DNA from: Methanobacteriota archaeon
GTDB taxonomy: Archaea; Thermoplasmatota; Thermoplasmata; SG8-5; JACRNV01
DNA: 64,000 nt
Assembly (NCBI GenBank): GCA_016214785.1
Contig: JACRNV010000028.1
Span: 3,445-67,444 of the forward strand
Reading direction: 5' to 3'
The first letter of the stretch is position 1; each line of letters opens with the position of its first letter. This document shows, one piece after another, positions 9,139 to 52,943 of this stretch. A program made the translations under genes and the position numbers. Under the pieces are notes generated by a model, which saw nothing but the letters and a program-made list of their open reading frames with translations, was not told where the DNA came from and searched no databases.

Positions 9139-9155
9139 CCGATGGAGGGATTGCA

Positions 9156-11477: not shown

Positions 11478-11493
11478 TCATACTCGACGCTTC

Positions 11494-12078: not shown

Positions 12079-12834
12079 CTATGCCTTCTTCCTCCTCGCT
12101 ATGAGGATCATCCCGATGAGTATCGCGGCGACTGCGACCGCCAGCACTACGCCGTAGAACCAGTCGAAGCCTTCCTGCTTGAGGTAGAAAGTCTTCGCGG
12201 TGTAGATGTCCCCCGAGCCCGGGGATACTACGCCGTCGCCGTCAACGTCCCCCTTGATGACCAGGGTGTGCGCCCCGGCCGGAGGGTTGGCCACTATCCA
12301 GTCGGCGGTTATGTTCGTGCTCTGGCCGGCGGAAATAGAGATCCTCTGCGTATCCACGAGCACATCATCGATATATATTTGGACGGGGAGGCTGTCTATG
12401 TTAATCTTGGAGGGGTTTTCTACCTGGCACGAGACGCTCAGAGGCTGGACGACCTGGATGGTCTTGACCGCGTCGCGCCATTCCGTGCCTTTCGAGACGT
12501 TCACGTAAAGGTCGACCGCGCCCTTGACGCTCGGCGCGGTGACGTTTATCAGCACGGACGTCTCGGTGACGTTCCCCTTAAGGGGCGTGTTCTTGGTCGG
12601 CGTCGCGTTGGTGGTGTTGCCGTTCGTGAAGTACGCCTCGTACTTCCAGTCCGGCCCCTCGGCGCCCACGACCAGTACCTTGTACTCCCCGGACTTGTTC
12701 AGCCCCAGGGCGTTCGGGCCCTCGATGTAGACCCGGATCGTGGCATTGCCGGCCGCATGGGCCGCGCCTGCCTGGAGGAGCGTCATCGACAGGAGCGCAG
12801 CCAGCGCCACCGACGCCAGGAGCCTCCCGCTCAT
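12079..12834 (-). CDS. Secreted, C-terminally membrane-anchored surface protein of 251 aa, extremely rich in N-glycosylation sequons. It is translationally coupled to the upstream AglB-like gene by an ATGA overlap.
   Basis: It has a signal peptide (MSGRLLASVALAALLSMTLLQAGAAHAAG), at least 12 N-x-S/T sequons, and a C-terminal TM helix plus RRKKA. The start ATG at 12834 overlaps the AglB stop TGA at 12831-12833. Confidence 0.65.
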   Translation of the reverse strand: MSGRLLASVALAALLSMTLLQAGAAHAAGNATIRVYIEGPNALGLNKSGEYKVLVVGAEGPDWKYEAYFTNGNTTNATPTKNTPLKGNVTETSVLINVTAPSVKGAVDLYVNVSKGTEWRDAVKTIQVVQPLSVSCQVENPSKINIDSLPVQIYIDDVLVDTQRISISAGQSTNITADWIVANPPAGAHTLVIKGDVDGDGVVSPGSGDIYTAKTFYLKQEGFDWFYGVVLAVAVAAILIGMILIARRKKA

Positions 12835-22987: not shown

Positions 22988-23177
22988 GCCAAAGGGCGAA
23001 GGCGATTAAGGTTTTAAATGGTTTGCGCCGTGGCGTGCTGGAAGGCCCTCCAGAGCGTGTAATTCCCTTTCGAAATCTATATATATGAACCGACTATTAC
23101 GATGCTTTCGGAAAGCGCCTCTCTCAAACCGCGCGGGTTTTTTGCCTGTAGGGGCTTGGGAAATGGAGGGAAAAACA

Positions 23178-25994
23178 ATGAGAAAAGACAGTTCGAACTT
23201 GGGGGTTCGATGTATTGCGCTGGCGATCGCGGTTGTACTACTGGCAGGCCCTATCGCTGCATTTTCCATGCAGAGGGCGGCCGGGGACAGCGCCACCCTT
23301 GGCGGCAAGTACGGGGGGGTCCTCAGGGTCGCCTTGCGTGGAGTGCCTGGCCCCATCAGCCCGCTCGCCTCGAACGACGCGGACACGGGCAAGATCGTGG
23401 ACCTCGTCTACGACTCCCTCGCGCGCGTCGATTCCACGTCTCTCGCGGTAATCCCATGGGTCGCAGACTCTTGGAACATCACGAACGAGACGTGGATGAA
23501 CGTCACGGTCTTCGTCAAGAACTACGTCAAGTGGCACGACGGCTCCGCGCTCACTCTCAGGGACATCAAGTGGACGTACAACCTCTCCGGTTACGCCCCG
23601 TCCTATATAACGGAAATGCTGCTCAACGAGACGGCCAACACGATAACGTTCTGCATGCAGAACCCGAACGGCTCGTTCCTCGTCGATGGCCTACAGCTCA
23701 AGCTCGTCCCGTACGGGTTCGGCAACGGCAGCGCGCCAAAGGGGTGCGGCCCGTACAAGTTCAGGGCCAATGCGACAGGCTATGTCGAGCTGGAGACGTT
23801 CGAGGACTATTTCAAGGGACGCGCGTACCTGGACGGCATCAACTTCACCTACTACAACCAGCCGACGAACAGGACCGAGTTCGCGATGGTGGACCTCATG
23901 AACGACACGCTTGACACGATTGGCTGGAACCTCGACCCGCTCGAGGCGAGCCAGAACGTCCTCGTCAACGGCAACGCGACCAACCTCAAGGCGCACAACA
24001 ACACGGCCGAGGTCACGCCGCCGAGCCTCAGGCAGCTCGTGCTCGGGCTGAACTGCGGGCAGGGGATGTACCTGAGCGAGCTCGCAGTGAGGAGGGCCAT
24101 AGCCTACGCAACGGACAAGGACGCGCTCTGGAAGTTCAACCAGGGGGACACCCTTGTCGCGAAAACGGTTATCCCGTCCGAGGACTTCACCTGGTTCAAC
24201 TCGACGACGGCGAGCATCCCCCTCGACACGACCATGGCCAACGACATACTCAACCAGGCCGGCTATTACGACGTTAACTTCGACGGATACAGGGAGCTCC
24301 CCAACGGAACAAAGTTCTTCATGAGGTTCCTTGCCCCGACGTCCGAGGAGAACCTCCAGATATACGGCTTCGCGGACATCATACAGAAAGGGCTCGACAA
24401 GATTGGCCTGAACGTCACGCTCGTATTCGACACGCCCGCCAACAGGACCGCGATGGTAAACGCCGACAACTACGACCTCTTCATTGGCTTCGAGGAGAGA
24501 TTGACAGTGAAGCCGCTGTCGCTCTTCCCGATGTTCTACTCGCCCGACATCGCGGCGGGGTCGAACCTCTACAACTTCAAGGGTGCCGCGAACGTGACCA
24601 ACGTGACGGTCAGGACCGACAGCGCTACCTCCACGGGCATGCTCGCCCACACCAACATAGTCGGGACCAAGCCCATCGTGGCATGGAGGAACGGGGTGCT
24701 GTGGGGCAGCGCCGTAAACCAGACCATCATGGCGTACAACGGGACGGACTACGTCCTCCTGCGGAACGTCAGCATCGCCTCCGCCAGTGTTTCATTCTAC
24801 AAATGGGCCGGGGGCCTCTCCACGCTCGTCCCGACCACGAACTTCACTCTCAACCTGGGCACCGGGAACGTCAGCTTCTCGGCAGGCTATCTCCAGGCCG
24901 GCGACATAGTCACCGCTTTCTACAACTACACGACTTACCAGATGCTCGACCTCATAGCGGGGAAGATACAGATACTCAACAACTTCGACATCCAGAACGA
25001 CACCCTGACCATGAGCTACTCGTACATCGCGTTCGACGACGCCGTCCAGAAGGTCTGGAGGGACAACAGCACGGCGGCCGTGGTCGCGCACTACAAGGAG
25101 GCGCAGGGCGCAGTCGCCGACCTGGTGCCGGTCGTCCCGCTGCTCACTTACAAGTTCGTCAACTCCTATGACAGGCGCGTGTACACCGGCTGGGTCGAGA
25201 TGCTCGACGGCATTCACAACTTCTGGTCCTTCATACGCGTGCACGCGATAATGACCGACGCCGCGCTCATCTTCTCGGCGAGCGCGTTCCCCGGCTACGC
25301 GACGTCCGGCGGCACGCTCAGCGTCAAGATGAGGCTCGACGACGAGAACGGCGCGGCGGTCTCCGGGGCGCACATCAGCTTCACGCCGTCCGACGGCTTC
25401 TCGAACATCACCGACAACGGCGACGGGACATACACGGCGACGTTCACGGCGCCGGAGGTCTCCGAAGCGGAGACGATCACCACGACGGTACATGCGGCGA
25501 AGCGCAGCTACGAGCCGGTTGATGTGTCAATGCCGATAACGGTGCACCCGGTCCAGTGCTACTTCGCAATCGAGGTCAAGTTCGACAACAGCACCGCCGC
25601 CTCAGATACTTTGATGGGCGTGACCGTTACCGTCCGCGACGACACCAACAGGTCGCTTATAACGAACGCCAACGTGACGCTGACGATATCGCCGTCCGGG
25701 GTTGGCGCCACGCTCGACAACATCACAGGCGTCACGAACTCGGCCGGCCAGTTCAAGGCCAAGGTCAACGTCAGCAAGGTCACGGTCGACACCTACTTCA
25801 GGGTGACGGCGAGCGTGTCCAAGGCCGGATACCTCTCGGACAGCGGCACCGCGACGCTCTTCGTCCCCAAGTATGGCGGCGAGCAGCCGAACAACGGCAT
25901 CCTCGGTCTTTCGGGGCCATCCCCGCTGATGGTCATTAGTGTACTTGGTCTGGTCGCGGTCGCGATGGCCCTGGCGCGGAGAAGGCGCAGGTAA
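23178..25994 (+). CDS. Surface-anchored ABC-transporter substrate-binding protein of family 5 (OppA/DppA-like), with a C-terminal Ig-like extension and C-terminal TM anchor. It is heavily sequon-rich and 938 aa long from the RBS-supported ATG.
   Basis: SBP_bac_5 signatures are VYDSLARVDSTSLAVIPWVADSW and VKNYVKWHDGSALTLRDIKWTYN. There are many N-x-T/S sequons. The C-terminus is ...LMVISVLGLVAVAMALARRRRR. GGAGGG lies 6 nt upstream of the ATG at 23178. Confidence 0.7.
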   Translation: MRKDSSNLGVRCIALAIAVVLLAGPIAAFSMQRAAGDSATLGGKYGGVLRVALRGVPGPISPLASNDADTGKIVDLVYDSLARVDSTSLAVIPWVADSWNITNETWMNVTVFVKNYVKWHDGSALTLRDIKWTYNLSGYAPSYITEMLLNETANTITFCMQNPNGSFLVDGLQLKLVPYGFGNGSAPKGCGPYKFRANATGYVELETFEDYFKGRAYLDGINFTYYNQPTNRTEFAMVDLMNDTLDTIGWNLDPLEASQNVLVNGNATNLKAHNNTAEVTPPSLRQLVLGLNCGQGMYLSELAVRRAIAYATDKDALWKFNQGDTLVAKTVIPSEDFTWFNSTTASIPLDTTMANDILNQAGYYDVNFDGYRELPNGTKFFMRFLAPTSEENLQIYGFADIIQKGLDKIGLNVTLVFDTPANRTAMVNADNYDLFIGFEERLTVKPLSLFPMFYSPDIAAGSNLYNFKGAANVTNVTVRTDSATSTGMLAHTNIVGTKPIVAWRNGVLWGSAVNQTIMAYNGTDYVLLRNVSIASASVSFYKWAGGLSTLVPTTNFTLNLGTGNVSFSAGYLQAGDIVTAFYNYTTYQMLDLIAGKIQILNNFDIQNDTLTMSYSYIAFDDAVQKVWRDNSTAAVVAHYKEAQGAVADLVPVVPLLTYKFVNSYDRRVYTGWVEMLDGIHNFWSFIRVHAIMTDAALIFSASAFPGYATSGGTLSVKMRLDDENGAAVSGAHISFTPSDGFSNITDNGDGTYTATFTAPEVSEAETITTTVHAAKRSYEPVDVSMPITVHPVQCYFAIEVKFDNSTAASDTLMGVTVTVRDDTNRSLITNANVTLTISPSGVGATLDNITGVTNSAGQFKAKVNVSKVTVDTYFRVTASVSKAGYLSDSGTATLFVPKYGGEQPNNGILGLSGPSPLMVISVLGLVAVAMALARRRRR

Positions 25995-26028: not shown

Positions 26029-28086
26029 ATGGCGACGCTGGTCATAGCCGAGAAGAACGACGCCGCGAGGCGCATAGCCTCCATCCTTTCCCAGGGCAGC
26101 CTCAAGCGCTCCGCGATATCCAAGGTCCCTGTCTACAGCTTCGAGAGGGGAGGCGAGGAATACTCGGTCGTGGGCCTGCGCGGCCACATACTCAGGCTCG
26201 ATTATCCCAAGCGCTTCGCGCGCTGGCACGCCGACGACATCTCCGCCCTTGTATGGGCCGAGCCGGAGCGCAACGTGGCCGCGCACTCAATTGTCGGCGC
26301 GCTCGAGGTGCTCGGGCAGAAGTGCGGGAAGGCGATCCTGGCCACGGACTACGACCGGGAGGGGGAGCTCATCGGCGTCGAGGCGCTGTGGATCGTCCTG
26401 AAGAAGAACCCGGACATCGCGGTCAAGAGGGCGCGCTTCAGCGCGTTCACGAGGTACGAGGTCGAGACAGCATTTTCCAGCCTGACCGAGGTCGACCACG
26501 CGCTCGCTCGGGCCGCGGAGGCGCGGCAGATAATCGACCTCGCATGGGGGGCGGCCCTCACGCGGTTCATGTCTTTGACGACGGGGCAATATGGCCGCGA
26601 CTTCCTATCGGTCGGGCGGGTGCAGAGCCCCACTCTGGCGCTCATCGCCGACCGGGAGAAGGAGATCGCGGCGTTCGTCCCGAAACCGTACTGGGAGGTC
26701 ATCGCCACACTCAAAAAGGAGCGCGACTTCACAGCCAAGCACGAGAGGGGCTCGATCTGGGAGAAGCCCGAGGTAGACGCGCTGATGGCGCAGTTGGCCG
26801 GCGCTGCGAGCGGCACGGTCGCTGCCCTCCAGGTGCAGGAGAAGAAGGACTATCCCCCGTCGCCGTTCAACACCACCACATTCCTAGCCGAGGCCAGCAG
26901 GCTCGGCCTCTCGGCCACGATGGCGATGTCCATCGCCGAGAAGCTGTACATCGACGGCTACATCAGCTACCCCAGGACCGACAATACGGTCTATCCGCCG
27001 TCTATCAACCTCGACAACGTGCTCAAGGAGCTGCAGGGCTCGGAGTTCAAGGCCGAGGCCGCGCGCCTGTTGAAGGAGCGCAGGCAATATCCCTCGCGGG
27101 GCAAGGTGACGGCGACCGACCACCCGCCGATATATCCGGTCGCGGCAGCCACCAAGAAGAAGCTCAAGGCCGATACATGGCAGATATACGAGCTGGTCGT
27201 TCGGCGCTTCTTCGCCACCGTAGCTCCCGATGCGTTGGCTAGGGAGACTCGCGCAGTCATCGACATCCTCGGAGAGAAGTTCGAGGCGAGCGGCAGGGAA
27301 ATCCTCTTCAAGGGCTGGTACGAGTACTATCCGTACTATTCCCCGCGCGAGGCGTTCATTCCCGCGCTTTCGACCGGCGAGAAGCTTCCCGTCGCCAAGA
27401 TGGAGGCCATCGAGAACAGGACCCGGCCCCCGAACCGCTACTCCCAGGGCAACCTGATACAGGAGATGGAGCGCCTCGGCCTGGGCACGAAGAGCACGAG
27501 GCACGAGATAGTCCAGAAGCTCTTCGAGCGCCGGTACGTGGAGGGGAACCCGCTGCGGGCGACGGAGGGCGGCATCGCCGTCGTGAACGCGCTCGAGACC
27601 AGCGCCGAACACATCACGCAGCACGAGATGACCGCCCTGCTCGAGGAGGAGATGACGCGCATAGCGGAGGGGAAGAAGGAGCTGGACGTCGTCGTCACCG
27701 AGTCTCAGGAGATACTCTCCAAGGCCCTTGTGGCGCTCGAGTCCAACAAGCACCAGATACGCGAGAGCGTCAGGGGCGCGCTGGCGGCGCAGAAGCGCAT
27801 AGGCCGGTGCCAGTCATGCGGCAGCGACCTCGTCGTGCGCTGGTCGAAGAGGAAGAAGCGCTTCGTGGGCTGCTCGGCGTACCCGAAGTGCAAGACCACC
27901 TACCCATTGCCGCAGAACGGCCTCATCGTCCCCATGGACGACACCTGCGACCACTGCAAGGCGCCGATGATAAAGCTCGTCATGAGGGGCAGGAGCCCGC
28001 GCCGCCTGTGCATAAACATGGAGTGCACCGACGAGAGGAAGCAGCAAGCTATCAAAGCAAGTGCCGCCAGAAAAGCTTCCAAGTAA
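26029..28086 (+). CDS. topA: DNA topoisomerase I (type IA) with C-terminal C4 zinc-ribbon motifs, 685 aa.
   Basis: The Toprim N-terminus is MATLVIAEKNDAARRIASIL and ILATDYDREGELIG is present. The active-site region is YISYPRTDN. The C-terminal ribbons are CQSCGSDL...CSAYPKC and CDHCKAPM...C. Confidence 0.85.
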   Translation: MATLVIAEKNDAARRIASILSQGSLKRSAISKVPVYSFERGGEEYSVVGLRGHILRLDYPKRFARWHADDISALVWAEPERNVAAHSIVGALEVLGQKCGKAILATDYDREGELIGVEALWIVLKKNPDIAVKRARFSAFTRYEVETAFSSLTEVDHALARAAEARQIIDLAWGAALTRFMSLTTGQYGRDFLSVGRVQSPTLALIADREKEIAAFVPKPYWEVIATLKKERDFTAKHERGSIWEKPEVDALMAQLAGAASGTVAALQVQEKKDYPPSPFNTTTFLAEASRLGLSATMAMSIAEKLYIDGYISYPRTDNTVYPPSINLDNVLKELQGSEFKAEAARLLKERRQYPSRGKVTATDHPPIYPVAAATKKKLKADTWQIYELVVRRFFATVAPDALARETRAVIDILGEKFEASGREILFKGWYEYYPYYSPREAFIPALSTGEKLPVAKMEAIENRTRPPNRYSQGNLIQEMERLGLGTKSTRHEIVQKLFERRYVEGNPLRATEGGIAVVNALETSAEHITQHEMTALLEEEMTRIAEGKKELDVVVTESQEILSKALVALESNKHQIRESVRGALAAQKRIGRCQSCGSDLVVRWSKRKKRFVGCSAYPKCKTTYPLPQNGLIVPMDDTCDHCKAPMIKLVMRGRSPRRLCINMECTDERKQQAIKASAARKASK

Positions 28087-28239
28087 TATTCGTTTTATGT
28101 GGACATAAATCCTTTATCGGGGTCCTAGGGGAATTCGCTTTTCAGCAAACACTCAGCGAAGAATGCCCCTAGAGAGGAAGAAGGATTCGAAAGCTTAATA
28201 ATCCCTTCCGCGCATGTATATCGCACAGAGGGCATAAAA

Positions 28240-31200
28240 GTGGGCGGCGCAACGGGGAAGGGCATCGCGATTTCCGTCGGGATATTGATGATGTTGAGCG
28301 CCGTTGTTATAGGCAGCCAGCAGACAGGAGAAGGTGCGCAATCCCCGCCAGGAAAGGCGCCCGCATCTCTTTTACCGATATCTTCGAATTATGTGGCGCA
28401 CGCGCCGATAAGGATAAACTCGGACGTAGAGTTCGCGAGCATGGCAGCGAGCGAGGGATGGGCAGGAGATGGAACACAGGGGAACCCGTATATCATCGAG
28501 AATTACGACATATCCGGCTCAGGATATCGAGGTTGCATTTATATCGGCAATACAACGAGTTACTTTGTCTTGAGGAATTGTTACCTACACCATGCTACCG
28601 GAACATTCAGTGAGCCGTACTTTACGGATTCCGGTTTGGCGTTGTGCAATGCTCAAAACGGTTCGATAACCAACAACATAGTTATGTACGATGTCGAAGG
28701 GATTTACGGAAATTTAGCATCACATAACATATTCTCCAACAATACAGTAAAACAGAATAGCGATGGGGGCATTTATTTCCTCTCTTGTTCAAGTAATACC
28801 TTCATGTATAATAACTGTTCAAATAACGCAGCGGGAATAAGTCTAAAGAGCGGTTCAAATTCAAACAATGTAGTTAACAATACGTTCAACTCAACTTCGT
28901 ATTGGGGATTAGATGTGACGAGCTCACTCAATAATTTTATTTCAAATAATACTGCATCCGCGAATAGTAAATACGGGTTTTACCTTAGAACCTCAAGCAA
29001 TAGTAATACTATCGTCAACAATACAATATCAGCTAACATTCAGTATGGCATCGTCCTCGAATTGTCGTCCAGCAACACCATCTACCAGAACAATTTCATC
29101 AACAATACGAACCACGCCTCTGACAATCGCAACGACAATTGGTGGAACGCATCCTATCCTACTGGAGGTAACTACTGGTCTAATTATGCTGGTGTAGACC
29201 TGCTCTCTGGTCCCAGCCAGGACCAACCTGGTTCCGACGGTTTCAGCGATACTCCATACAACATCGACGCCGATTCGAAAGACGCTTATCCTATTGTGAT
29301 CGATGTTATAATTGCCTGCACATATCCCATTGACGGCTCGATTTTACCTAATACTGCTCCCAGTACATATATCATTCAATTCAACAAGGTTATGGACAAA
29401 ATGGTCGGTATAATATCGACCAACCTGCCGGGAGTCACATGGACATGGAGTGCAGATGGGATATGGTACAACGGGACCTATGGAGCATTACAATTATCAA
29501 CGACGTATTACGTAGACCTGATCGGCGGTGGTTTTATGGATTACACAGGGAGTCCATTGACTGGGGACAACTATAAAAATTTCACTACTTGGGATGGAAT
29601 CCACTGTCCCCCTTTCAGGATAAACTCGGATGCAGAGTTCGCGAGCATGGCAACGAGCGAAGGATGGGCGGGGGACGGGACGCAGGGGAACCCGTATATA
29701 ATCGAGAACTACGACATCGACGGGACTGGATTCGGGTATTGTATCTACGTCGGAAACACGACAGATTACTTCGTGGTGAGGAATTGCTACCTGCACCATG
29801 CAAGCGGTAACTCCGGAACTTACTATTGGAATTCCGGAATAGTTTTTTACAATGTCCAGAACGGCATCATCGCCAACAACACCGCTTCCTCGAACAACGA
29901 CCTAGGCATCTATCTCTACTCCTCCAGCAGCAACATCATCGCCAACAACACAGCGTCCTCGAACAACTACTACGGCATCCTCCTCGAATCCTCCACCAGC
30001 AACACCATCGTCAACAACACAGCGTCCTCGAACAACGACCTAGGCATCTATCTCTACTCCTCCAGCAGCAACACCATCACCAACAACACCGCCTCGAACA
30101 ATTTCAATGGCATTCTTCTGTCAACTAGTTCATATAATGTTATTGAAAATAATACTGCATTTTCTAATCTAGGGGGTGCGGGTGTCAACTTATCAACTAG
30201 TGATAACAACCTCATTACAAACAATTCAGCATGTTCAAATGGCCAGGGTATTTTCCTATCTCGTTCTAATTGGAATACAATTATCTTTAATGAACTATCA
30301 GACAATCAATATAGTGATGGGCCATGTGGAATTTGGTTCCGTGATAAATCAGATTATAATGACATTGCATATAACAATATAACAAATAATTTTTTTGGAA
30401 TTTGGATTCAGTATCGTGGGGAGCCTATAGGAAGTAATGGTAATAATATAACTAATAACACTTTTCTATCAAATTACGCTGGAATAAACATTGCGGCAAA
30501 TTTCGCTACAGCAAATCGTATTATTCATAATAATTTTATTAACAATATAAATTATCAGGCATCCACTGTGGCTTCCAATTACTGGTATGCTTCCTATCCC
30601 TATGGGGGTAACTACTGGAGCGATTACAACGGGCTCGATGTAAAGTCCGGTTCCAGCCAAAGTCTTCCAGGCGCAGATGGGATCGGTGACACGCCTTACA
30701 CGAATATCCAGGGAGGAACCGGCGCGGCAGACAAATATCCGCTCATGGTTCCATGTGGCTCGACATCATCGTATTTCAAGATTCCAGTCCACCTAGGCTG
30801 GAACCTGATATCAACGCCACTTTTGCCATCAAGTAAATCTTTGCCCTCAGTATTTATAGATACCGATGGCAATACGTCCTGGGACCGCGTGCAATCTTAC
30901 AGCCCTTCGACTCCGACCAATCTCTGGATGCAGTATTATACCGGTTGGGCCTCGTCGCTAAACGATTTGAAGAGCGCAGATCAAACTATAGGTGTGTGGC
31001 TCAACGTCACAAACCTTGGCGATGGTTATATCAATGTTAGCGGAAATATAACGCCATTCACGACTATTCCTCTTTACGCCGGTTGGAACCTCATCGGGTA
31101 TCCCGCGAAGAACGATTCAGCGTACACAATTGCAAACCTGATGTCAGCAACGGGCGCGACCATCGTTGAGGGCTATGATGGGCTCGCCACTTACCGAACA

Positions 31201-31290
31201 TCGCCACTTTCAGACACTTACGTCCTGAAGCGCGGGGAAGGCTACTGGGTCTATATGTCATCCCCAACGACGTGGGTCGTGGACTGGTAG
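28240..31290 (+). CDS. Secreted right-handed parallel beta-helix repeat protein (NosD/pectate-lyase-like), 1016 aa. It contains two tandem beta-helix modules from an internal duplication. It has a GTG start and a signal peptide.
   Basis: IRINSDVEFASMAASEGWAGDGTQGNPYIIENYDISGSG and FRINSDAEFASMATSEGWAGDGTQGNPYIIENYDIDGTG recur about 400 aa apart. About 20-aa rungs (NNTASSNNDLGIYLYSSSSN...) repeat. The gene is visibly AT-richer than its neighbours. Confidence 0.7.
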   Translation: MGGATGKGIAISVGILMMLSAVVIGSQQTGEGAQSPPGKAPASLLPISSNYVAHAPIRINSDVEFASMAASEGWAGDGTQGNPYIIENYDISGSGYRGCIYIGNTTSYFVLRNCYLHHATGTFSEPYFTDSGLALCNAQNGSITNNIVMYDVEGIYGNLASHNIFSNNTVKQNSDGGIYFLSCSSNTFMYNNCSNNAAGISLKSGSNSNNVVNNTFNSTSYWGLDVTSSLNNFISNNTASANSKYGFYLRTSSNSNTIVNNTISANIQYGIVLELSSSNTIYQNNFINNTNHASDNRNDNWWNASYPTGGNYWSNYAGVDLLSGPSQDQPGSDGFSDTPYNIDADSKDAYPIVIDVIIACTYPIDGSILPNTAPSTYIIQFNKVMDKMVGIISTNLPGVTWTWSADGIWYNGTYGALQLSTTYYVDLIGGGFMDYTGSPLTGDNYKNFTTWDGIHCPPFRINSDAEFASMATSEGWAGDGTQGNPYIIENYDIDGTGFGYCIYVGNTTDYFVVRNCYLHHASGNSGTYYWNSGIVFYNVQNGIIANNTASSNNDLGIYLYSSSSNIIANNTASSNNYYGILLESSTSNTIVNNTASSNNDLGIYLYSSSSNTITNNTASNNFNGILLSTSSYNVIENNTAFSNLGGAGVNLSTSDNNLITNNSACSNGQGIFLSRSNWNTIIFNELSDNQYSDGPCGIWFRDKSDYNDIAYNNITNNFFGIWIQYRGEPIGSNGNNITNNTFLSNYAGINIAANFATANRIIHNNFINNINYQASTVASNYWYASYPYGGNYWSDYNGLDVKSGSSQSLPGADGIGDTPYTNIQGGTGAADKYPLMVPCGSTSSYFKIPVHLGWNLISTPLLPSSKSLPSVFIDTDGNTSWDRVQSYSPSTPTNLWMQYYTGWASSLNDLKSADQTIGVWLNVTNLGDGYINVSGNITPFTTIPLYAGWNLIGYPAKNDSAYTIANLMSATGATIVEGYDGLATYRTSPLSDTYVLKRGEGYWVYMSSPTTWVVDW
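29860..30100 (+). repeat. Intragenic tandem nucleotide repeats, in about 60-nt units encoding 20-aa beta-helix rungs. A 49-nt exact duplicate occurs at 29889-29937 and 30029-30077.
   Basis: tcctcgaacaacgacctaggcatctatctctactcctccagcagcaaca occurs twice, 140 nt apart. Confidence 0.7.
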
Positions 31291-31359
31291 CAACTGTGAG
31301 TCATGCATATTAGGTTGATTTAAGAGAATAAACTTCTAGCGCATTTGGAATGGCCTGGC

Positions 31360-31509
31360 TTACTTCTTTCTAGATTCCTTCGCCTTCGGTCTCAGTCCGT
31401 CGTAGCCGCACTTCCTGCAGCGCGTGGCCCTCTGCGCGTTGCGGGCGTAGCAGCTCATGCATATCTTCTTGTTGAACATGCGCGCGTCGGCTTCCGGGAA
31501 TCTGGTCAT
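31360..31509 (-). CDS. rpl40e: Ribosomal protein L40e, 49 aa. It was missed by the ORF track.
   Basis: The minus-strand translation is [49 protein letters not shown]. This closely matches archaeal L40e (MARFPEAEARIF.K.ICMRC.A.N......CRKCG...LRPKA). It lies 25 nt downstream of rfcS. Confidence 0.85.
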
Positions 31510-31534
31510 CGCCGCCCGATGCAGGAGCCCGTAT

Positions 31535-32503
31535 TTAAGCTGTGCGCTTGACCCTGGCAGACGCTATCCAGGCAAGAAGGGATTCTAGCTGTATGCGGTC
31601 GCTGCCGCCCTGTATCAGGCGGTACTCGACCTCCCCCAGGCGCTCGATTATCCTTATCCTGTCCTCCTCGGAGATGTTTATATCCCCCTCCAGGACCTCG
31701 CGGTGGAGCTGCTTGAGGATGTCCTCCCCGGAGAGCCCCAGGTCGATGAGGAGTTTGTCGAGCTTGCCGCGCGCCCCCGAGAAGTTCCCGGCCACGGCCT
31801 CCTTGACCATCGCGGCAATCTCCTCGGGCCGCGCCAGCGCGGACGTCTTGTGCACGACGTCGTCATCGATGCTCTTCGCCATCGCCGCTGCGGCTTGAAG
31901 CGAGTTAGTCGCCCTGCGCAGGTCGCCCATCGCGTGGTAGGCGATGATATCGTAAGCGCTCTCCGATACCTTGAGCTTCTCCGCCTCGGCGATCTTCTTC
32001 AGGTAGGAGATGACCTCCGCGTCCTCGAGCGGCCTGAACCTGAAGACGGCGCAGCGCGACTGTATCGGCTCGATGATCTTGGACGAATAGTTGCAGGACA
32101 GCACGAACCTGCACGTCGCGGTGTAGCGCTCCATAGTCCTGCGGAGCGCGGCCTGGGCGTCCGACGTCAGCGCGTCGGCCTCATCGAGGAATATGACCTT
32201 GAACGGCACCTTGCCGAAGGGCGCAGTGCGGGCGAAGTCCTTTATCTTGCCCCGGACGATGTCTATGCCCCTCTCGTCCGAGGCGTTCAGCTCGTGGAAG
32301 TTGTTGCGCCAGTTCTCGCCGAAGAGCTGGCGGGCGAGCGCGATCGCGCACGTGGTCTTCCCGGTCCCCGCAGGACCGGCGAACATGAGGTGGGGAAGGC
32401 TGCCGCCCTGCGCATAGGCCTTCAGGCGCTTGACGGCCTCGGCCTGCCCCACGACCTCGTCAAGGTTCTTGGGGCGGTATTTCTCGACCCAGATGTCGTT
32501 CAT
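31535..32503 (-). CDS. rfcS: Replication factor C small subunit, 322 aa.
   Basis: PWVEKYRPK-type N-terminus is [16 protein letters not shown]. Walker A is GPAGTGKTT. Also present are [10 protein letters not shown] (sensor-1 region) and [20 protein letters not shown]. Confidence 0.9.
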
Positions 32504-43249: not shown

Positions 43250-46174
43250 TCAATAATTGTACGCGAGCCAGGTCGTCTTCGAACTAACATATAACCAATA
43301 CGCCTGGCCGGGCTGCATGATGTCCGTTCCGGAGAGGACGATGGTCCTGTATGTTTGCGACGGGTCGAACCCTTCGATGAGAGAGCAGGCTGGGCCGATG
43401 AGTCCCATCACGTCCGAGGCGAGCATACCGGTCGCATAGGGCATCGCTACGAGGTTCCAGCCCGACTCCAGCTCGGTCGTGCTGTTCGCTATCCTCCCCA
43501 CTGCCACGTAAATTTCCCCGATGGCAGAGCGCACCCACAGCCCCTGCCGCGCCTCGACGAAGGTCAAGTCGTCCAGGAAGTCTTCGCGACCCGTGTAGTT
43601 AGTCTTCCAGTAGTTGGCAGGTTCGTGCGCGTCGTATGCCATCACATATTCCCAATAGACGGTAGCCAGATGCTCGGTAATCAGCGCGCCCGAGCCGAAC
43701 GGGCTCCCCAGCAATGCCCAGTCGGAAACGAAGCCGTAACCGACCTTCCCAAGGATATCCCAGCTCTCGGACACGTGCCCGACTCTGTCCACAGAGGATA
43801 CCCGTGCATAAAATGAGGACGAGTTCCCATCCCCCGAATTCGGCAGGGCGAAAGCATTGCCGCTGGCAAAGACCAGCTCTCCAGAGGCTCCCTTTATAGC
43901 TTGGAGAGACTGGCTGAAACGCACTCTATACTGAGGGACATCGGTGGATGTGGAATCGTCAAACTCTAATATCAATGCCGTCTTGGGCGACGTGGCATTC
44001 TGGGTAGCGAGGAAAATCCTTCTTTTTTGGGGCTCGAGATAGTCTTGCCCTGAGTAATATACATATGTTGTGCCATTCACGATAATCGCACCAGGCGACT
44101 CTATTCTGCCAGAATCTAGCTCTCCAATGGGTGCAGAGTTCACGCACAGCCCTTTTTTAATCCAATCAATACCGTTGGAGGATGACGCGTATAATACGTA
44201 GTCGGTGCTTCCATTGTGCCCCGTGTACCACATTCGGTATTGTGCGCCGGAGTGAAGCACCACTGGAGCAGAAGCTCCAAGGCGATCGAAATCGTTGAAG
44301 GCGCCAACGTCCAAAGCGACTCGGTTTTTAACCCACGTAAGGCCATCAGAAGACTCTGCATACAGGATGCGCTGCGCAATGCCGTCCCATCCAGTATACC
44401 ACATCTTGTATGTTGTTCCATCTAGGATGACAGAAGGAGAGTATGCCCTCATGGAATCGCAATCGCTGCTATTCCCGATGTCGAGCACGACCCCGTGCTT
44501 GTTCCAGCTCAGGCCATCTGAGGAATTGGCATACATGATTCGCCAGGTCGTTTCGTTCGAGCCCGAGTACCACATCTGATATTCCGCGTTCCACAATACC
44601 GAACACCAGGCGACATGCACCCCATCCGGTGTGTCCGGTTCGCCGATGTCCAAAACGACGCCATATTTTGTCCAGGTAAGGCCATCAGTGGAATTGGCAT
44701 AATGGATCCGGTATTGGTATGAGCCGTCCGCCCCCGAGTACCACATCTTGAACTCGCTGTCCTGATTGAGGACGGAAGGTCGCTCTGCGTGTAAAAGGTC
44801 CGAGTTGTCAGGGCCCCTATCTACAACCATCCCGAGCTTGTCTGCAAGGACTGCTTCGAGGCGTATCGTTAGGTTTTCCGGCGGTGCCGGCGGCACTCCA
44901 TCGACCGCGAACGTCCAGTTATAGATCCAAGCTCGGCGAAAGATGGCGTCAGCCAGATCAGTAACCCAAACACTGCACCTGACGCTGGCGCCGTTCATGA
45001 ACGCTCCTTGGTGCCAATATGAAACATTGTAACCGAGGGGTATTCTGGTCAAGTTAGGAATGACCCTGTATCCCTTCACATAAAGCCGGATGGACGAGGC
45101 ATCGATGTCCGAGGCGTCGGAGACACAGACCGAAATTACCGGGGTCTGGTTCCCCCAACCACCCGGTTCCGGGAACATAGAATAATGAGAAGGGCGGGAA
45201 TCATCTATACGGGCCATTCCCGCCATCTCGCAGAGGGTCGCCACGGCCATCTGCGTATTGTTCGCTGCGTAAGTCATGTTGAGTTTGTCGATGGTATCTT
45301 GTGGCGTGTGGTAGTCGTCGTTGAAATTCTGGTTGAATACTTCAATCAACATCACTCCGTCGTATCCAACGGCCCAGAACGAGGCGTGGTCGCTGTATGG
45401 AAATCCTACTATTTCCTGACCTTGAATCCCGATGATGTCCGAATATTTCTTGCAGATGTTTGAAGTGTTGTTCGCCAACCAAACAGATTCACTATTGGTA
45501 CAGATAGACGTTGTATTGAATGTGGGGTCAGGATTGTGGCCGATCATGTCGAGATTGAAAACCCCGGCGATATCTGCCCCCTCGTTCAGCATCTTTTCAG
45601 CATATGGCTGGCTCCCCCTCATCATCAGCTCCTCTCCCCCCCAGGCAATGAATCGGATGGTATCGTTGAACCTGTAATCGCTCAATATCTCGGCCGCGGC
45701 AAGGACTCCGGCAACTCCGCTGGCATCGTCGTCTGCCCCGGGAGCCGCCCAGTACCTTGATGATGAGGAATAAGAGTCATAATGCGCGCATATAATCCAT
45801 ATTTGCGTCGAATTGGGGTCTGTTCCAGGCAATTCGCCTATCACGTTCCGGATGATGTGGTCGTTGTACAAGTTGTCGTCATAGGTTACATTGAGTTCGA
45901 AGCGTTCCATCACGCTTCCGATCCATCCAGCCGCTTCAATCGAATAATGCGTATATGCATATCTTGTGTCAAAGTCCTGCAAAGGCTGGATGAAACTGGC
46001 CATCAACCCCTCGTCAATCTGCCGGAGTATCGAACGGATTTCGGAATCCTGATCTATTGACGTGGCCAATGAAATGTCGTCACTTCCACCATCCTTGGAA
46101 TGTCCTTGAGTGAACCCCAATGTGACGGTCGAGGTAATGAGTGCGAAGGTCAGCAACATGACCAATGTCTTCAT
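43250..46174 (-). CDS. Secreted multidomain protein of 974 aa: an M28-family zinc aminopeptidase domain followed by repeated beta-propeller blades (GH43/GH32-like 'MWYSG...DG..W.K.G' repeats) and a C-terminal domain. Its GC content is lower than that of neighbouring genes.
   Basis: M28 motifs are ICAHYDS, GADDDASGVA and WGGEEL. The repeats are KMWYSGADGSYQYRIHYANSTDGLTWTKYGVVLD, YQMWYSGSNETTWRIMYANSSDGLSWNKHGVVLD and YKMWYTGWDGIAQRILYAESSDGLTWVKNRVALD. Confidence 0.6.
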   Translation of the reverse strand: MKTLVMLLTFALITSTVTLGFTQGHSKDGGSDDISLATSIDQDSEIRSILRQIDEGLMASFIQPLQDFDTRYAYTHYSIEAAGWIGSVMERFELNVTYDDNLYNDHIIRNVIGELPGTDPNSTQIWIICAHYDSYSSSSRYWAAPGADDDASGVAGVLAAAEILSDYRFNDTIRFIAWGGEELMMRGSQPYAEKMLNEGADIAGVFNLDMIGHNPDPTFNTTSICTNSESVWLANNTSNICKKYSDIIGIQGQEIVGFPYSDHASFWAVGYDGVMLIEVFNQNFNDDYHTPQDTIDKLNMTYAANNTQMAVATLCEMAGMARIDDSRPSHYSMFPEPGGWGNQTPVISVCVSDASDIDASSIRLYVKGYRVIPNLTRIPLGYNVSYWHQGAFMNGASVRCSVWVTDLADAIFRRAWIYNWTFAVDGVPPAPPENLTIRLEAVLADKLGMVVDRGPDNSDLLHAERPSVLNQDSEFKMWYSGADGSYQYRIHYANSTDGLTWTKYGVVLDIGEPDTPDGVHVAWCSVLWNAEYQMWYSGSNETTWRIMYANSSDGLSWNKHGVVLDIGNSSDCDSMRAYSPSVILDGTTYKMWYTGWDGIAQRILYAESSDGLTWVKNRVALDVGAFNDFDRLGASAPVVLHSGAQYRMWYTGHNGSTDYVLYASSSNGIDWIKKGLCVNSAPIGELDSGRIESPGAIIVNGTTYVYYSGQDYLEPQKRRIFLATQNATSPKTALILEFDDSTSTDVPQYRVRFSQSLQAIKGASGELVFASGNAFALPNSGDGNSSSFYARVSSVDRVGHVSESWDILGKVGYGFVSDWALLGSPFGSGALITEHLATVYWEYVMAYDAHEPANYWKTNYTGREDFLDDLTFVEARQGLWVRSAIGEIYVAVGRIANSTTELESGWNLVAMPYATGMLASDVMGLIGPACSLIEGFDPSQTYRTIVLSGTDIMQPGQAYWLYVSSKTTWLAYNY

Positions 46175-48998: not shown

Positions 48999-49050
48999 TA
49001 ACGGACAAAGGATAAATAGAGGCCTGGCGATAGAGTATCAGGTGTGTCAA

Positions 49051-51300
49051 ATGGCGCATTGCCAATTCTGCGGGACGTGGAGCGAGACCGGATACTGCCC
49101 GAACTGCGGGGCGCCTATGCCTGCCGCGCAGCAGCCAGCCTACCAGCCATCGCCGACGTACCAGCAGCCGTCCCAGCCGCCGCCGGTTTACCTGCAGCAG
49201 CCTTACTATCCGCCGCAAGGACCGGCCCAGGCGCTGCATACGCCGCCCCCTCAGAAACCGGGGCCGAGCATGAAGCTCTTCGCCATCATCATCGTCGCCG
49301 TGGTCGTCATAGCCGCGGTCGGCGGGGCCATCCTCTTCTTCATAATCCTAAAGTCGCCGATCTTCAACCCGTTCGGGAACGCGCAGGAGATTTCCAAGGG
49401 CTCCGTGATCGAGAAGAGCTTCGACCAGAGCGGCGCCGACCACTTCTACAAGATCAAGCTCCAGCCCGGCGACCTGCTGTCCGCCACGCTGACCGGCGCG
49501 GCCGGCACAGATTACGACCTTTACGTTTACAGGTACACGCTCTTCACAGATAGCGACATCATCGGCAGCAGCCAGAACCAGAGCAGCACGGAGAGCGTGA
49601 ACGTCGTCGCGTGGGAGAGCGCATACTACGTCGTCGACGTGTATTCTTACAGCGGCACGGGCGGCTACAGGCTCTCCGTGGACGTGCCAAAAACCGTATC
49701 TATCGATGATGGGAACAATGACAGGGACAGCGCCGCTCCCGTCTCCAGCGGCCAGACAATCAGCCAGGAGGCCAACGAATACTACGACCAGGACGACTAC
49801 TTCAAGGTGCAGGCGGGCGCGAACGGCGTCGTCAGCGCGCTCCTGAAGGTCCCGCAGGGCTCGGACTTCGACCTCTACCTTTATGACAGCGGCGGCTCGA
49901 AGCTCGCAGCCTCTGAGAATTACTACGGCAACGACGAGGTCAAGACGCAGGTTTCCTCGGCGGGATCCTATTACTTGAAGGTGCACGCGTACAAGGGCAT
50001 CGGCTCGTACATGCTCACTGTGACAGTGGGCGATTCGACGCCGACCGACAGCGACAACAGCCTCTCCGCGGCCACTTCGCTGGCGCCGCCGAAGACGGTC
50101 ACGAGCACGCTCGACGAGTTCTCCGACCCGGACGATTATTACTCGCTCCCGCTACAGTCGGGGCAGACGCTCAGCGCGTCCCTCTCTGGGCCGGCCAGCG
50201 CGGACTTCGACCTCTGGCTCTACGATAGCGGTGGCAACGCCCTGAAGGATTATTCCTCCGCCGGCTACAGTTCGACGGAGCAGATAACCTTCCCAGTGAC
50301 CACGGCAGGCACCTATTACGTCAACCCTTACGCATACTCCGGCTCCGGGACGTACTCGCTCTCCGTCTCGACCTCCGGCTCCTCCGGCGGCCCTGTGGCC
50401 AACGCAGGCGGCGACAAGGAGGGGGAGGCGGGCGCGACCATCTCATTTGACGGCTCGCGGTCCGTGGGCACGGGCCTCACGTACTCCTGGGAATTCGGGG
50501 ACAGCCAGAGCGGGACGGGAGCGACCGCGACGCACTCGTACACTGCGGCGGGCACATATGCTGTGAAGCTTACAGTAACGGACTCGCAATCGAGGACGGA
50601 CGTGGACTCGGCGACGGTCAAGGTCTTCGCCGCAGGGGCGAGGCCGAACAAGTACGCCGTCGTCGTGGGGATATCCGACTACCAGACCATCAACGACCTC
50701 AGCTACTGCCACCTCGACGCGCAGTCGTGGAAGGGCTACCTCGAGAACAAGGGCTACACGGTCCACCTGCTCATCGACTCGCAAGGCACGGAAGCGGGCA
50801 TCATGTCAGAGATAGAATGGATGAAGGGCCAGGAGACCCCGACGAGCTACTGCGCCTTCGTCTTCTCGGGGCATGGCGGGCTCGACACGCACAAGAGAGA
50901 GTCCTACCTTGACACCTACGAGATAAGCAGTGGCGGGAGCGGCTTCCTCTACGACAGCGAGCTGGCCGCGGCCTTCCAGGGCTTCGAGAGCAAGCACATC
51001 TTCATCTTCTTCGACAGCTGCCACAGCGGCGGCATGGACTCGTCGGCGGGCGAGGGCAGGTACCTCTCGGAGACGTGCAGCAAGGAGACGTTCGGGCTGG
51101 ACATATCGAGATATAGCCACGGCCTCTGGACGTACTGGTTCCTGGAATGGGGCCTGAAGAGCCAGGGATACGAGGACCTGAGGACATGCTTCAGCGAGGC
51201 CTCCAAGAAGGTCGCAGCGGATCCGAGCGCCCAATACACCGAGGGCGGGCGCATGACCCCCGAGCAGGAGTACGGCGGCTCGGTGCCGTTCTACCTCTGA
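49051..51300 (+). CDS. Membrane-anchored orthocaspase / metacaspase-like protein (peptidase C14). It has an N-terminal zinc ribbon, a P/Q-rich linker, one TM helix, three pre-peptidase C-terminal (PPC) domains, one PKD domain and a C-terminal caspase-like catalytic domain with the His-Cys dyad.
   Basis: The zinc ribbon is CQFCGTW...CPNCG and the TM helix is LFAIIIVAVVVIAAVGGAILFFIIL. The three PPC domains share the D.YKI/YKV...DLYVY/DLYLY/DLWLYD...GSY.L.V pattern. The PKD domain is ISFDGSRSVGTGLTYSWEFGDSQSGTGATATHSYTAAGTYAVKLTVTD. The caspase region is YAVVVGISDYQ...FVFSGHGG...IFFDSCHSGG. The RBS aggtg is 7 nt upstream of the ATG at 49051, and the ORF track's GTG at 49042 is the alternative start. 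Confidence 0.7.
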   Translation: MAHCQFCGTWSETGYCPNCGAPMPAAQQPAYQPSPTYQQPSQPPPVYLQQPYYPPQGPAQALHTPPPQKPGPSMKLFAIIIVAVVVIAAVGGAILFFIILKSPIFNPFGNAQEISKGSVIEKSFDQSGADHFYKIKLQPGDLLSATLTGAAGTDYDLYVYRYTLFTDSDIIGSSQNQSSTESVNVVAWESAYYVVDVYSYSGTGGYRLSVDVPKTVSIDDGNNDRDSAAPVSSGQTISQEANEYYDQDDYFKVQAGANGVVSALLKVPQGSDFDLYLYDSGGSKLAASENYYGNDEVKTQVSSAGSYYLKVHAYKGIGSYMLTVTVGDSTPTDSDNSLSAATSLAPPKTVTSTLDEFSDPDDYYSLPLQSGQTLSASLSGPASADFDLWLYDSGGNALKDYSSAGYSSTEQITFPVTTAGTYYVNPYAYSGSGTYSLSVSTSGSSGGPVANAGGDKEGEAGATISFDGSRSVGTGLTYSWEFGDSQSGTGATATHSYTAAGTYAVKLTVTDSQSRTDVDSATVKVFAAGARPNKYAVVVGISDYQTINDLSYCHLDAQSWKGYLENKGYTVHLLIDSQGTEAGIMSEIEWMKGQETPTSYCAFVFSGHGGLDTHKRESYLDTYEISSGGSGFLYDSELAAAFQGFESKHIFIFFDSCHSGGMDSSAGEGRYLSETCSKETFGLDISRYSHGLWTYWFLEWGLKSQGYEDLRTCFSEASKKVAADPSAQYTEGGRMTPEQEYGGSVPFYL

Positions 51301-51319
51301 GCACGCGGTGGAAATCCAC

Positions 51320-52355: not shown

Positions 52356-52943
52356 CTACGTTTTATCCTTCTCAACCATGTGATCGACTAGGCGCGTTAT
52401 CTGCTTGGTGAGTTCCTTAATGTCGCTTTCCATCGTGTTTACTTTTTGCCCGATTGCGTCATAGCGGGTCAGCGCACCGCCCAGTTGATTGCTTATGTTG
52501 TCCAGCTTGGCGTTCATTCCGTCTTGTTTTTCGGTCATGATCCCGATGCCGGACTTAGTGCCACCAAGCAATAAGATTCCGACCTCCGAGCGGGTGAGGG
52601 TCGCTTTCTGAAATGGGTCTATTTCCATTCCGTAATCTATCTTAAAGACCTTGAAGTCGGTCTTGGGGTCGCCATACTCCTTCGAGCCTTCCTCGTAGAT
52701 TTTTATGGATTCCACATTCAGTATGAACATGTCCTCGGTGGATGATTTCTTCTCGATGTTTTTGCAGAACTTCGTCACTATTTCCTTGTTCGCGCACTCG
52801 CAATAGACCTCGACGTTGCCGTCCTCCAGATTTCTGACAATCCCGTTCACCTTCATCTTGTTGGCTACTTTTCGTATTAGCGTTCTGTAGCCAACGTCCT
52901 GAACGTTGCCGGATATTACGAGGCGGGCGCGTACTGCCATCAA
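52356..52943 (-). CDS. Acylphosphatase-like domain protein with a C-terminal coiled-coil extension, 195 aa. It sits in an AT-rich islet.
   Basis: The N-terminus VRARLVISGNVQDVGYRTLIRKVANKMKVNGIVRNLEDGNVEVYCE matches the acylphosphatase fold signature (V.G.VQGV.FR...A...G..G.V.N..DG.VE). The C-terminal 90 aa are heptad-rich. Confidence 0.5.
   Translation of the reverse strand: MMAVRARLVISGNVQDVGYRTLIRKVANKMKVNGIVRNLEDGNVEVYCECANKEIVTKFCKNIEKKSSTEDMFILNVESIKIYEEGSKEYGDPKTDFKVFKIDYGMEIDPFQKATLTRSEVGILLLGGTKSGIGIMTEKQDGMNAKLDNISNQLGGALTRYDAIGQKVNTMESDIKELTKQITRLVDHMVEKDKT

Follow-up and report, generated by a model that had tools for sequence, protein, structure and literature searches.

Introduction

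Caspase homologs of prokaryotes are usually framed in terms of programmed cell death and intracellular defense. The orthocaspases, among them MaOC1 of Microcystis and GSU0716 of Geobacter (PDB 3BIJ), have a p20-type Peptidase_C14 domain with an SGHG/DSCHSG catalytic dyad and an acidic S1 pocket. These features are shared by the protein considered here, which is encoded at positions 49051 to 51300 of a 64,000-nucleotide stretch of a Thermoplasmatota genome (contig JACRNV010000028.1; the whole stretch analyzed is referred to below as the window). In contrast to the orthocaspases, its C14 domain sits at the C-terminal end of a multidomain protein predicted to be exported and membrane anchored, and the C-terminal half, which closes with a clade-specific ...F-Y-L, is very compact. 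Unlike the window protein, MaOC1 is cytoplasmic and tied to a toxin-antitoxin module (PMC7935541).

Membrane-bound and extracellular members of the C14 family have been listed before. In the survey by Asplund-Samuelsson (2012), 671 prokaryotic C14 proteins are reported, with transmembrane (TM) helices in 15%; 98 were classed as membrane proteins, 30 as extracellular, and 7 as both (PMC3501461). Klemencic (2019) counted 93 archaeal C14 proteins, of which 15 have a Big_7 domain at the N terminus (PMC6426788), and a secreted C14-YARHG protein has been described from Bradyrhizobium (PMC3355149). Because of these precedents, the preliminary description of this locus, which had called an extracellular C14 domain unusual, overstated the case. 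The archaeal Big_7-orthocaspases and the "membrane/extracellular" metacaspases of the surveys are of the same general kind as the window protein, in which Ig-like modules and either a TM helix or a signal peptide come before C14. In the searched parts of these surveys and in the other literature searched, we found no description of the arrangement zinc ribbon, P/Q-rich linker, TM helix, three PPC domains, PKD domain, and C14 domain, nor did that literature yield a biochemically characterized member of the clade. Recognition of a coherent, mostly archaeal, compact-fold C14 clade that is systematically exported likewise appears to be undescribed there.

Functional analogs are found in other peptidase families. 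Gingipains (C25) and clostripain (C11) belong to the caspase-like fold clan, are specific for Arg/Lys, are exported, and carry Ig-like or adhesin modules, all of which are traits predicted for the window protein. They harvest external protein and have been reported in sedimentary Thermoplasmata and Bathyarchaeota (PMC6461988, PMC6752024). The analogy is functional only, with no match to the window protein at the sequence level, and the gingipains, unlike it, are cargo of the type IX secretion system and have pro-domains.

Predicted catalytic domain

The gene is the sole open reading frame (ORF) of its region in the ORF list (49042/49051-51300, +). Its 749-residue product, translated from the ATG at 49051, is 100% identical to NCBI MBI5000765.1, which carries no annotation beyond its title, "MAG: PKD domain-containing protein [Euryarchaeota archaeon]" (MAG, metagenome-assembled genome). 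This ATG is supported as the start because homologs begin 2-3 residues ahead of the first Cys. The coordinates of all features given here were checked by re-translation. The gene and its predicted catalytic elements are as follows:

49051..51300, + strand: whole gene, stop included, for a predicted 749-residue type II (N-in/C-out) membrane-anchored C14 peptidase
50650..51297, + strand: C14 caspase-fold catalytic domain, residues 534-749, complete and compact, with the clade-typical end ...PFYL
50707..50718, + strand: predicted S1-pocket residues Cys553 and Asp556, in YCHLDA, equivalent to TbMCA2 Cys92 and Asp95
50866-50868, + strand: predicted S1-pocket residue Ser606, equivalent to TbMCA2 Ser156/159
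50872..50874, + strand: catalytic His608, in SGHG, from alignments (codon verified)
51013..51015, + strand: predicted S1-pocket residue Asp655, the D of DSC, equivalent to TbMCA2 Asp211
51019..51021, + strand: catalytic Cys657, in DSCHSGG, from alignments (codon verified)

Residues 534-668 match Peptidase_C14 (PF00656) with 47.4 bits, against a curated gathering cut-off of 21.4. His608 is invariant in all three alignments of homologs (A1, A2, and A3); Cys657 is invariant in A2 and A3 and nearly so in A1, which has one truncated sequence. When a profile of the domain was compared with the PDB, both residues aligned with the catalytic SGHG/DSCHSG motifs of Yca1, CgMCA1, and GSU0716. The His/Cys dyad, which the preliminary description had read as intact, is conserved in homologs and matches that of solved metacaspases. 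The best sequence match of the same profile was Geobacter GSU0716 (3BIJ; 6.6e-16), followed by Candida CgMCA1 and yeast Yca1 (metacaspase-1; both about 2e-13), T. brucei TbMCA2 (about 4e-11), and then Arabidopsis MC4 and MC9.

The pocket of TbMCA2 that accepts a basic P1 residue comprises, as summarized in the 2019 survey, Cys92, Asp95, Ser156/159, and Asp211, and gives the enzyme its Arg/Lys specificity (PMC6426788). The placement of Cys553 and Asp556 is based on the profile alignment, in which "LsycdeDa" is aligned with LSGCCNDV and LRGCINDA. An alignment of 32 sequences from the wider clade shows no variation at Asp556, His608, and Cys657 and almost none at Asp655. Since all four residues of the acidic TbMCA2-type S1 pocket are present, cleavage after Arg or Lys, not after Asp, is predicted from residue conservation.

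An AlphaFold (AF2) model of the domain, built from a 32-sequence alignment, reached a predicted local distance difference test score (pLDDT) of 94.9 and a predicted TM-score (pTM) of 0.91; an earlier alignment of 14 sequences had given a pLDDT of only 67. The model has the full caspase topology, beta1-alpha1-beta2-alpha2-beta3 ... beta4 | beta5-alpha4-alpha5-beta6, in about 215 residues. Klemencic (2019) defines orthocaspases by a p20 domain with no p10 recognizable at the sequence level. Pfam and PDB-profile matches to the window protein end at about model position 142-146, and the remaining strands and helices of the fold are provided in the model by the C-terminal 80 residues, with the conserved ...PFYL end packed into the domain. 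Only about 12 residues lie between the catalytic Cys and the next strand of the model, so a long inter-subunit linker is missing.

Foldseek matched the model to MALT1, GSU0716, metacaspases, and caspases with E-values from 1e-12 to 1e-9. The caspase domain of the MALT1 paracaspase was the top structural match (query TM-score 0.75-0.77), followed by GSU0716 (0.75) and the metacaspases (0.67-0.71). MALT1 is an Arg-specific enzyme whose caspase domain, flanked by Ig-like domains, remains a single chain with no cleavage between subunits. It differs from the window protein in being a eukaryotic cytoplasmic signaling protein, and its sequence similarity to the window C14 domain is marginal (E about 0.3-0.9). 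In prokaryotes, the survey of Klemencic (2019) detected no paracaspases (PMC6426788).

The hidden Markov model (HMM) score, the position of the dyad after strands beta3 and beta4, and the caspase/hemoglobinase fold are those of family C14, and the S1 pocket is of the metacaspase type. As judged from the alignments and the predicted structure, the C-terminal domain is a bona fide C14 peptidase of the orthocaspase/metacaspase-like type, and it is probably active. A type I metacaspase, in which an N-terminal prodomain directly adjoins p20 and a p10 domain with a Ca-binding Asp is present, was considered and rejected: here the ribbon and P/Q region are set apart from C14 by the TM helix and by PPC and PKD modules that span about 430 residues, and no p10 domain match was found with Pfam or PDB profiles. 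One further residue of the domain, Arg670 (51058-51060), is invariant; it lies in a GxGRY motif 13 residues past the catalytic Cys, where strand beta5 begins, and could be either structural or an autoprocessing site for an Arg-specific enzyme.

Predicted topology and localization

A single hydrophobic segment precedes the extracellular-type modules:

49276..49350, + strand: single TM helix, predicted signal anchor, residues 76-100 (Kyte-Doolittle)

This is the only segment of the protein with a 19-residue Kyte-Doolittle mean above 1.6 (maximum 3.1), and the same scan of the 749 residues detected no second hydrophobic segment. Charges at its flanks were summed over the window protein and 13 Thermoplasmata homologs (14 members). 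The 15 residues on the N-terminal side hold 33 K+R and 4 D+E, and the 15 on the C-terminal side hold 5 K+R and 46 D+E. A cleavable signal peptide is excluded because the hydrophobic segment, beginning at residue 76, is too distant from the N terminus, and cleavage followed by reentry of the chain into the cytoplasm was rejected on the same grounds, there being no second such segment.

The flank charges, the single TM helix, and the signal peptides borne by relatives within the C14 clade all argue for an N-in/C-out protein and lend good support to the prediction that the C14 domain lies outside the cell. The localization proposed in the preliminary description agrees with these observations and with the extracellular type of the intervening modules; the two findings that would have spoken against it, a cleaved signal peptide with cytoplasmic reentry and catalytic residues that fail to align, did not emerge. 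The habitats of the host lineages are strictly anoxic and would be compatible with a free catalytic thiol outside the cell.

Predicted stalk and cytoplasmic part

Between the helix and the catalytic domain lie four modules:

49411..49686, + strand: PPC domain 1, approximately residues 121-212, boundaries approximate (Pfam PPC)
49762..50028, + strand: PPC domain 2, approximately residues 238-326 (Pfam PPC and repeat motifs)
50104..50373, + strand: PPC domain 3, approximately residues 352-441 (best Pfam PPC stretch 362-424, and motifs)
50392..50625, + strand: PKD domain, residues 448-525 (PKD_4)

Pfam PPC (PF04151) matches in three stretches with 59.1 bits (gathering cut-off 25.9), and the repeat motifs DYDLYVY and GTGGYRLSV are seen in the PPC domains; PKD_4 (PF18911) covers residues 448-525 with 67.2 bits (cut-off 27; E = 1.4e-18). 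With Peptidase_C14, all three families named in the preliminary description exceed their gathering thresholds, and the domain order it gave, from ribbon to C14, was recovered from Pfam together with composition and hydrophobicity.

The best PDB sequence matches to residues 213-526 are clostridial collagenases and PPC-bearing (archaeal) subtilisins. The collagenase entry 5iku aligns with residues 213-440, PPC domain 3 is matched both by it and by the subtilisin C-terminal domains 3afg and 9ues, and the PKD domain matches those of clostridial collagenases with E about 1e-10. PPC modules are termed collagen-binding domains in the collagenase literature, and the PPC and PKD modules of collagenases and subtilisins are binding or spacer domains. 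The clostridial collagenases ColG and ColH (M9B) and PPC-bearing subtilisins thus have the same accessory modules as the window protein, but combine them with a metallo- or serine catalytic domain in place of C14, and the modules are C-terminal to that domain, whereas in the window protein they lie between anchor and catalytic domain.

On the other side of the helix, the predicted cytoplasmic part has two elements:

49060..49107, + strand: cytoplasmic zinc ribbon CQFCGTWSETGYCPNC, CxxC-x8-CxxC, residues 4-19
49108..49275, + strand: P/Q/Y-rich low-complexity cytoplasmic linker, residues 20-75 (56 residues), with a K...K motif before the helix

The ribbon scores below threshold with Pfam DZR (PF12773; 12 bits against a cut-off of 27.3). 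Its Cys4 pattern is also kept in homologs, one of which (P0073) matches DZR with E = 4e-4, and precomputed DZR matches are on record for two others (P0003 and P0010). Nearly all complete Thermoplasmata members have the CxxC..CxxC motif in 1-3 copies, the homolog L018 having none. The N-terminal 75 residues contain 19 Pro, 12 Gln, and 6 Tyr; in alignment A1 this P/Q/Y composition of the linker is conserved, and its sequence and length (about 30-120 residues) are not.

Family and distribution

A word-indexed search returned about 12 proteins of the same architecture at 42-50% identity, and a second group in which the same C14 domain is combined with a signal peptide, a PPC array, and a CUB-like domain. 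When genomes were scanned with the C14 domain, identities of 46-52% were confined to Thermoplasmata and Methanomassiliicoccales MAGs; Hadesarchaea gave 37-42%, and Heimdall-, Thor-, and Promethearchaeota, Methanomethylicia, and Bathyarchaeia gave 32-38%. Remoter relatives were found in a few bacteria (Myxococcota, Pirellulales, and Dehalococcoidia). The hosts of the clade are uncultured anaerobic lineages.

In nearly all complete Thermoplasmata members the ribbon or ribbons are joined to a P/Q-rich linker, the TM helix lies at positions 62-184, and C14 is the C-terminal domain. Two homologs that seemed to lack the ribbon (P0007 and P0009) proved to be gene-calling artifacts, as extension of the ORF upstream restores it. 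In Hadesarchaea, Heimdall-, Thor-, and Promethearchaeota, Dehalococcoidia, and Pirellulales, an N-terminal signal peptide replaces ribbon and helix; the Heimdall proteins, for example, start MKKLKTTFITLILLSSFLVILTPTTS. The matches of an exhaustive profile search (E <= 1e-30) fell into 283 clusters at the 50% identity level. In a set of 104 cluster representatives, all Met-initiated and with the full domain at the C terminus, 61 had a signal-peptide-like N terminus and 9 an internal TM helix, and many of the others look fragmentary.

The accessory domains of the clade are all of extracellular type: PPC, PKD, CUB, fn3, and Big_7. A signal peptide-Big_7-C14 protein (P0087) falls inside the same clade, and short forms made up of ribbon, TM helix, and C14 only also exist (P0073 and L017). 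The Methanomassiliicoccales MAG CSMAG_2432 has three paralogs with differing ectodomains. The first, L014, consists of a zinc ribbon, a TM helix, a long ectodomain resembling that of the window protein, and C14; L017 is a minimal zinc ribbon-TM-C14 protein of 364 residues, and L028 is a signal-peptide protein of 1897 residues.

Genomic context

The gene lies between that of an archaeal CTP-dependent riboflavin kinase (RibK) and that of a class-I S-adenosylmethionine (SAM) methyltransferase, in a housekeeping neighborhood that includes aIF5B, S6e, aIF2-gamma, a PIN-domain protein, an aldehyde dehydrogenase, and PyrB. Its GC content at third codon positions, 0.86, is typical among window genes, and no second C14 copy was found within the window. 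One putative promoter element was read by eye from the sequence:

49011..49018, + strand: TATA-box-like GATAAATA, 33-40 nt 5' of the ATG

It is possible that GATAAATA belongs to an archaeal promoter of the gene's own. A scan for promoters and terminators of the bacterial type gave no information on this gene, the host being archaeal.

The methyltransferase begins 19 nt downstream, as the preliminary description had stated, at an ATG at 51320, with an alternative GTG at 51308. With 7-19 nt between stop and start, cotranscription is plausible. As a clue to function, this neighbor did not survive comparison: none of the window neighbors, the methyltransferase included, was present beside the C14 homolog at any of the 15 loci examined, and the methyltransferase, which has only generic class-I methyltransferase and generic PADLOC "mad2" domain matches, was rejected as a functional partner. 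Elsewhere, gyrA and an aldo-keto reductase gene are upstream of C14 homologs in 5 related MAGs, and an M3 oligopeptidase gene is downstream in 3 of the 15 loci. As no window neighbor recurs, the C14 enzyme would be encoded by a stand-alone gene.

Secreted, sequon-rich proteins are encoded close by, as had been pointed out. The exported M28 peptidase at 43250-46174 (-), which has GH130-like repeats, contains 23 N-x-S/T sequons where 7.3 are expected. A surface protein with SBP_bac_5 and Invasin_D3 domains (23085-25994, +) has 33 against 10.6 expected, and a 2334-residue ORF at 12831-19835 (-), in which an STT3/AglB oligosaccharyltransferase N-terminal domain is joined to three CarboxypepD_reg domains and Ig-like domains, has 43 against 15.

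Other features of the window and of related loci are given here as observations in their own right. Two islands of low GC content, 8001-12000 (0.45-0.52) and 28001-32000 (0.47-0.50), stand out from a background of about 0.61 and may have been acquired horizontally; the former carries genes for an AAA_14 ATPase (7726-9138) and an AAA_16+HTH+TPR STAND-like protein (9156-11477), and the latter a gene for a 1016-residue NosD/beta-helix protein (28240-31290). The window also encodes a large AAA_16+TPR (MalT/STAND-like) NTPase (456-2777, +), and in MAG UBA147 two AAA_16+TPR NTPases stand in tandem about 2 kb 3' of the C14 homolog (L004 10157-14310). The proximity is probably coincidental, because such NTPase genes seem abundant in these genomes. 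A 659-residue ORF (3361-5340, +) looks like an unusual fusion of Mur-ligase middle and C-terminal domains with an HhH-GPD DNA-glycosylase domain. The ORF at 52356-52943 (-), in a region of locally lower GC content, combines an acylphosphatase domain (residues 7-88) with a C-terminal extension of about 105 residues that has no family match. In two different MAGs (L001 4458-5545 and L004 4683-5725), a GNAT acetyltransferase gene and 2-3 ORFs of 42-56 residues, all on the opposite strand, lie directly 5' of the C14 homolog.

Discussion

We propose, with a probability of roughly 60%, that the window protein is a cell-surface endopeptidase specific for Arg/Lys that acts on external proteins. In this model a single-pass, N-in/C-out protein would keep its zinc ribbon and P/Q/Y-rich tail on the cytoplasmic side of the membrane, where they would anchor, and perhaps regulate, a stalk outside the cell that is built from the three PPC modules and the PKD domain. 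The stalk would bear the C14 endopeptidase at its distal tip, the enzyme would cut external proteins after Arg or Lys, and the PPC and PKD modules would serve as spacers or bind substrate. Most plausibly, by analogy with gingipain and clostripain, the activity would supply peptides for uptake in an anaerobic peptide-using archaeon. We infer the localization, activity, P1 specificity, and physiological substrate of the protein alike.

Scavenging of external protein is preferred to maturation of the envelope because the genomic context of the clade is variable and its ectodomains are diverse and paralogous, and also because the products of the window include an exported M28 peptidase as well as a surface protein that binds oligopeptides. 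Precedent lends further weight to this preference, since extracellular Arg-specific clan-CD peptidases (C25 and C11) and expressed C14B peptidases have been reported from sedimentary Thermoplasmata (PMC6461988, PMC6752024). Several observations weigh on the other side. The conserved cytoplasmic zinc ribbon would be superfluous in a simple nutritional protease and may point to regulation or to a partner in the cytoplasm. The substrate and P1 preference are deduced solely from residue conservation, and the localization from the positive-inside rule together with the architectures of relatives. In the C14 protein, 1 N-x-S/T sequon is present where 3.4 are expected (close homologs have 0-7), and three other exported proteins of the window, the M28 peptidase, the AglB fusion, and the SBP_bac_5 protein, are more than 3-fold enriched. 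Finally, about one third of the representatives in the crude screen are without a hydrophobic N-terminal segment; many of these look fragmentary, and some may be cytoplasmic.

An alternative that we consider unlikely, yet worth serious attention, is that the enzyme matures or remodels envelope proteins of its own cell, such as S-layer proteins, adhesins, or pili, by Arg/Lys cleavage at the membrane surface; processing of the S-layer had been suggested in the preliminary description. The enzyme is predicted to be tethered to the membrane and not freely secreted, large exported surface proteins are plentiful in the window, and the ribbon could couple it to secretion or assembly machinery. Against this stand the 15 loci, at which no envelope or S-layer gene is a conserved neighbor, and a pattern of signal-peptide relatives, highly variable ectodomains, and multiple paralogs that is more characteristic of enzymes of degradation; nor did a candidate substrate come to light. 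The conserved ribbon and low-complexity tail, kept throughout the Thermoplasmata clade with the ribbon in 1-3 copies, would instead fit a transmembrane signaling or conflict protein, whose external caspase-like domain takes part in interactions between cells, in fratricide, or in programmed cell death, or senses or cleaves a ligand, while ribbon and tail relay to or receive from the cytoplasm. The 2012 survey proposed that exported prokaryotic metacaspases act outside the cell in programmed cell death or fratricide (PMC3501461), and PADLOC returns a generic "caspase" match. We nevertheless regard this explanation as improbable: the match spans the generic p20 core only, the model for the EACC1-associated caspase of conflict systems (NCBIfam NF047832) scores 21.8 bits against a cut-off of 140, no partner gene is conserved, and sister clades are without any cytoplasmic part. 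These scores, and a locus of housekeeping genes that is not a defense island, also led us to reject a defense or conflict system as the primary explanation. With similarly little confidence we entertain a regulated surface-processing machine, for example, a clan-CD transpeptidase or endopeptidase resembling GPI8 or legumain, under cytoplasmic control through the ribbon and the P/Q/Y tail; it could cleave or attach envelope proteins or attack neighboring cells.

That the ectodomain is a nonproteolytic adhesin or binding surface, with C14 reduced to a pseudoprotease or binding module, is very improbable. PPC and PKD are binding modules, and pseudo-orthocaspases are common in bacteria according to the 2019 survey; the same survey found no archaeal pseudovariants (PMC6426788), and the window protein retains His608, Cys657, and the four S1 residues, all of which the clade conserves. 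We give hardly any credence to an inverted (N-out/C-in) topology, or to a protein that is not inserted in the membrane at all, with C14 in the cytoplasm as in classical orthocaspases. Characterized C14 enzymes are mostly intracellular, and the lack of sequon enrichment, which sets the protein apart from its exported neighbors, would fit such a location. It is opposed by the strong positive-inside bias of the whole family, by PPC and PKD modules that belong to secreted proteins, by homologous C14 domains that follow signal peptides of the cleavable type, and by the ribbon itself, since the reducing cytoplasm is where a zinc-binding Cys4 ribbon would be expected.

The practical value of these findings is modest, in that the gene can be given a better annotation than "PKD domain-containing protein." They bear on archaeal extracellular proteolysis and on nonapoptotic uses of the caspase fold, to which they are a useful addition that should not surprise specialists. 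The clade as a whole appears to represent a complete, apparently active caspase fold that is systematically exported or surface anchored in Thermoplasmatota, Hadarchaeota, Asgard archaea, Bathyarchaeia, and a few bacteria. If its members are active Arg/Lys surface proteases, they would account for an unrecognized share of the Arg-directed extracellular peptidase activity that has been measured in anoxic sediments and is now ascribed to gingipain- and clostripain-like enzymes, and they would constitute a major archaeal use of the caspase fold unrelated to cell death. Should the less probable surface-processing machine prove correct, the exported clade of Asgard and other archaea would represent an ancestral, nonapoptotic, extracellular function of the caspase fold.

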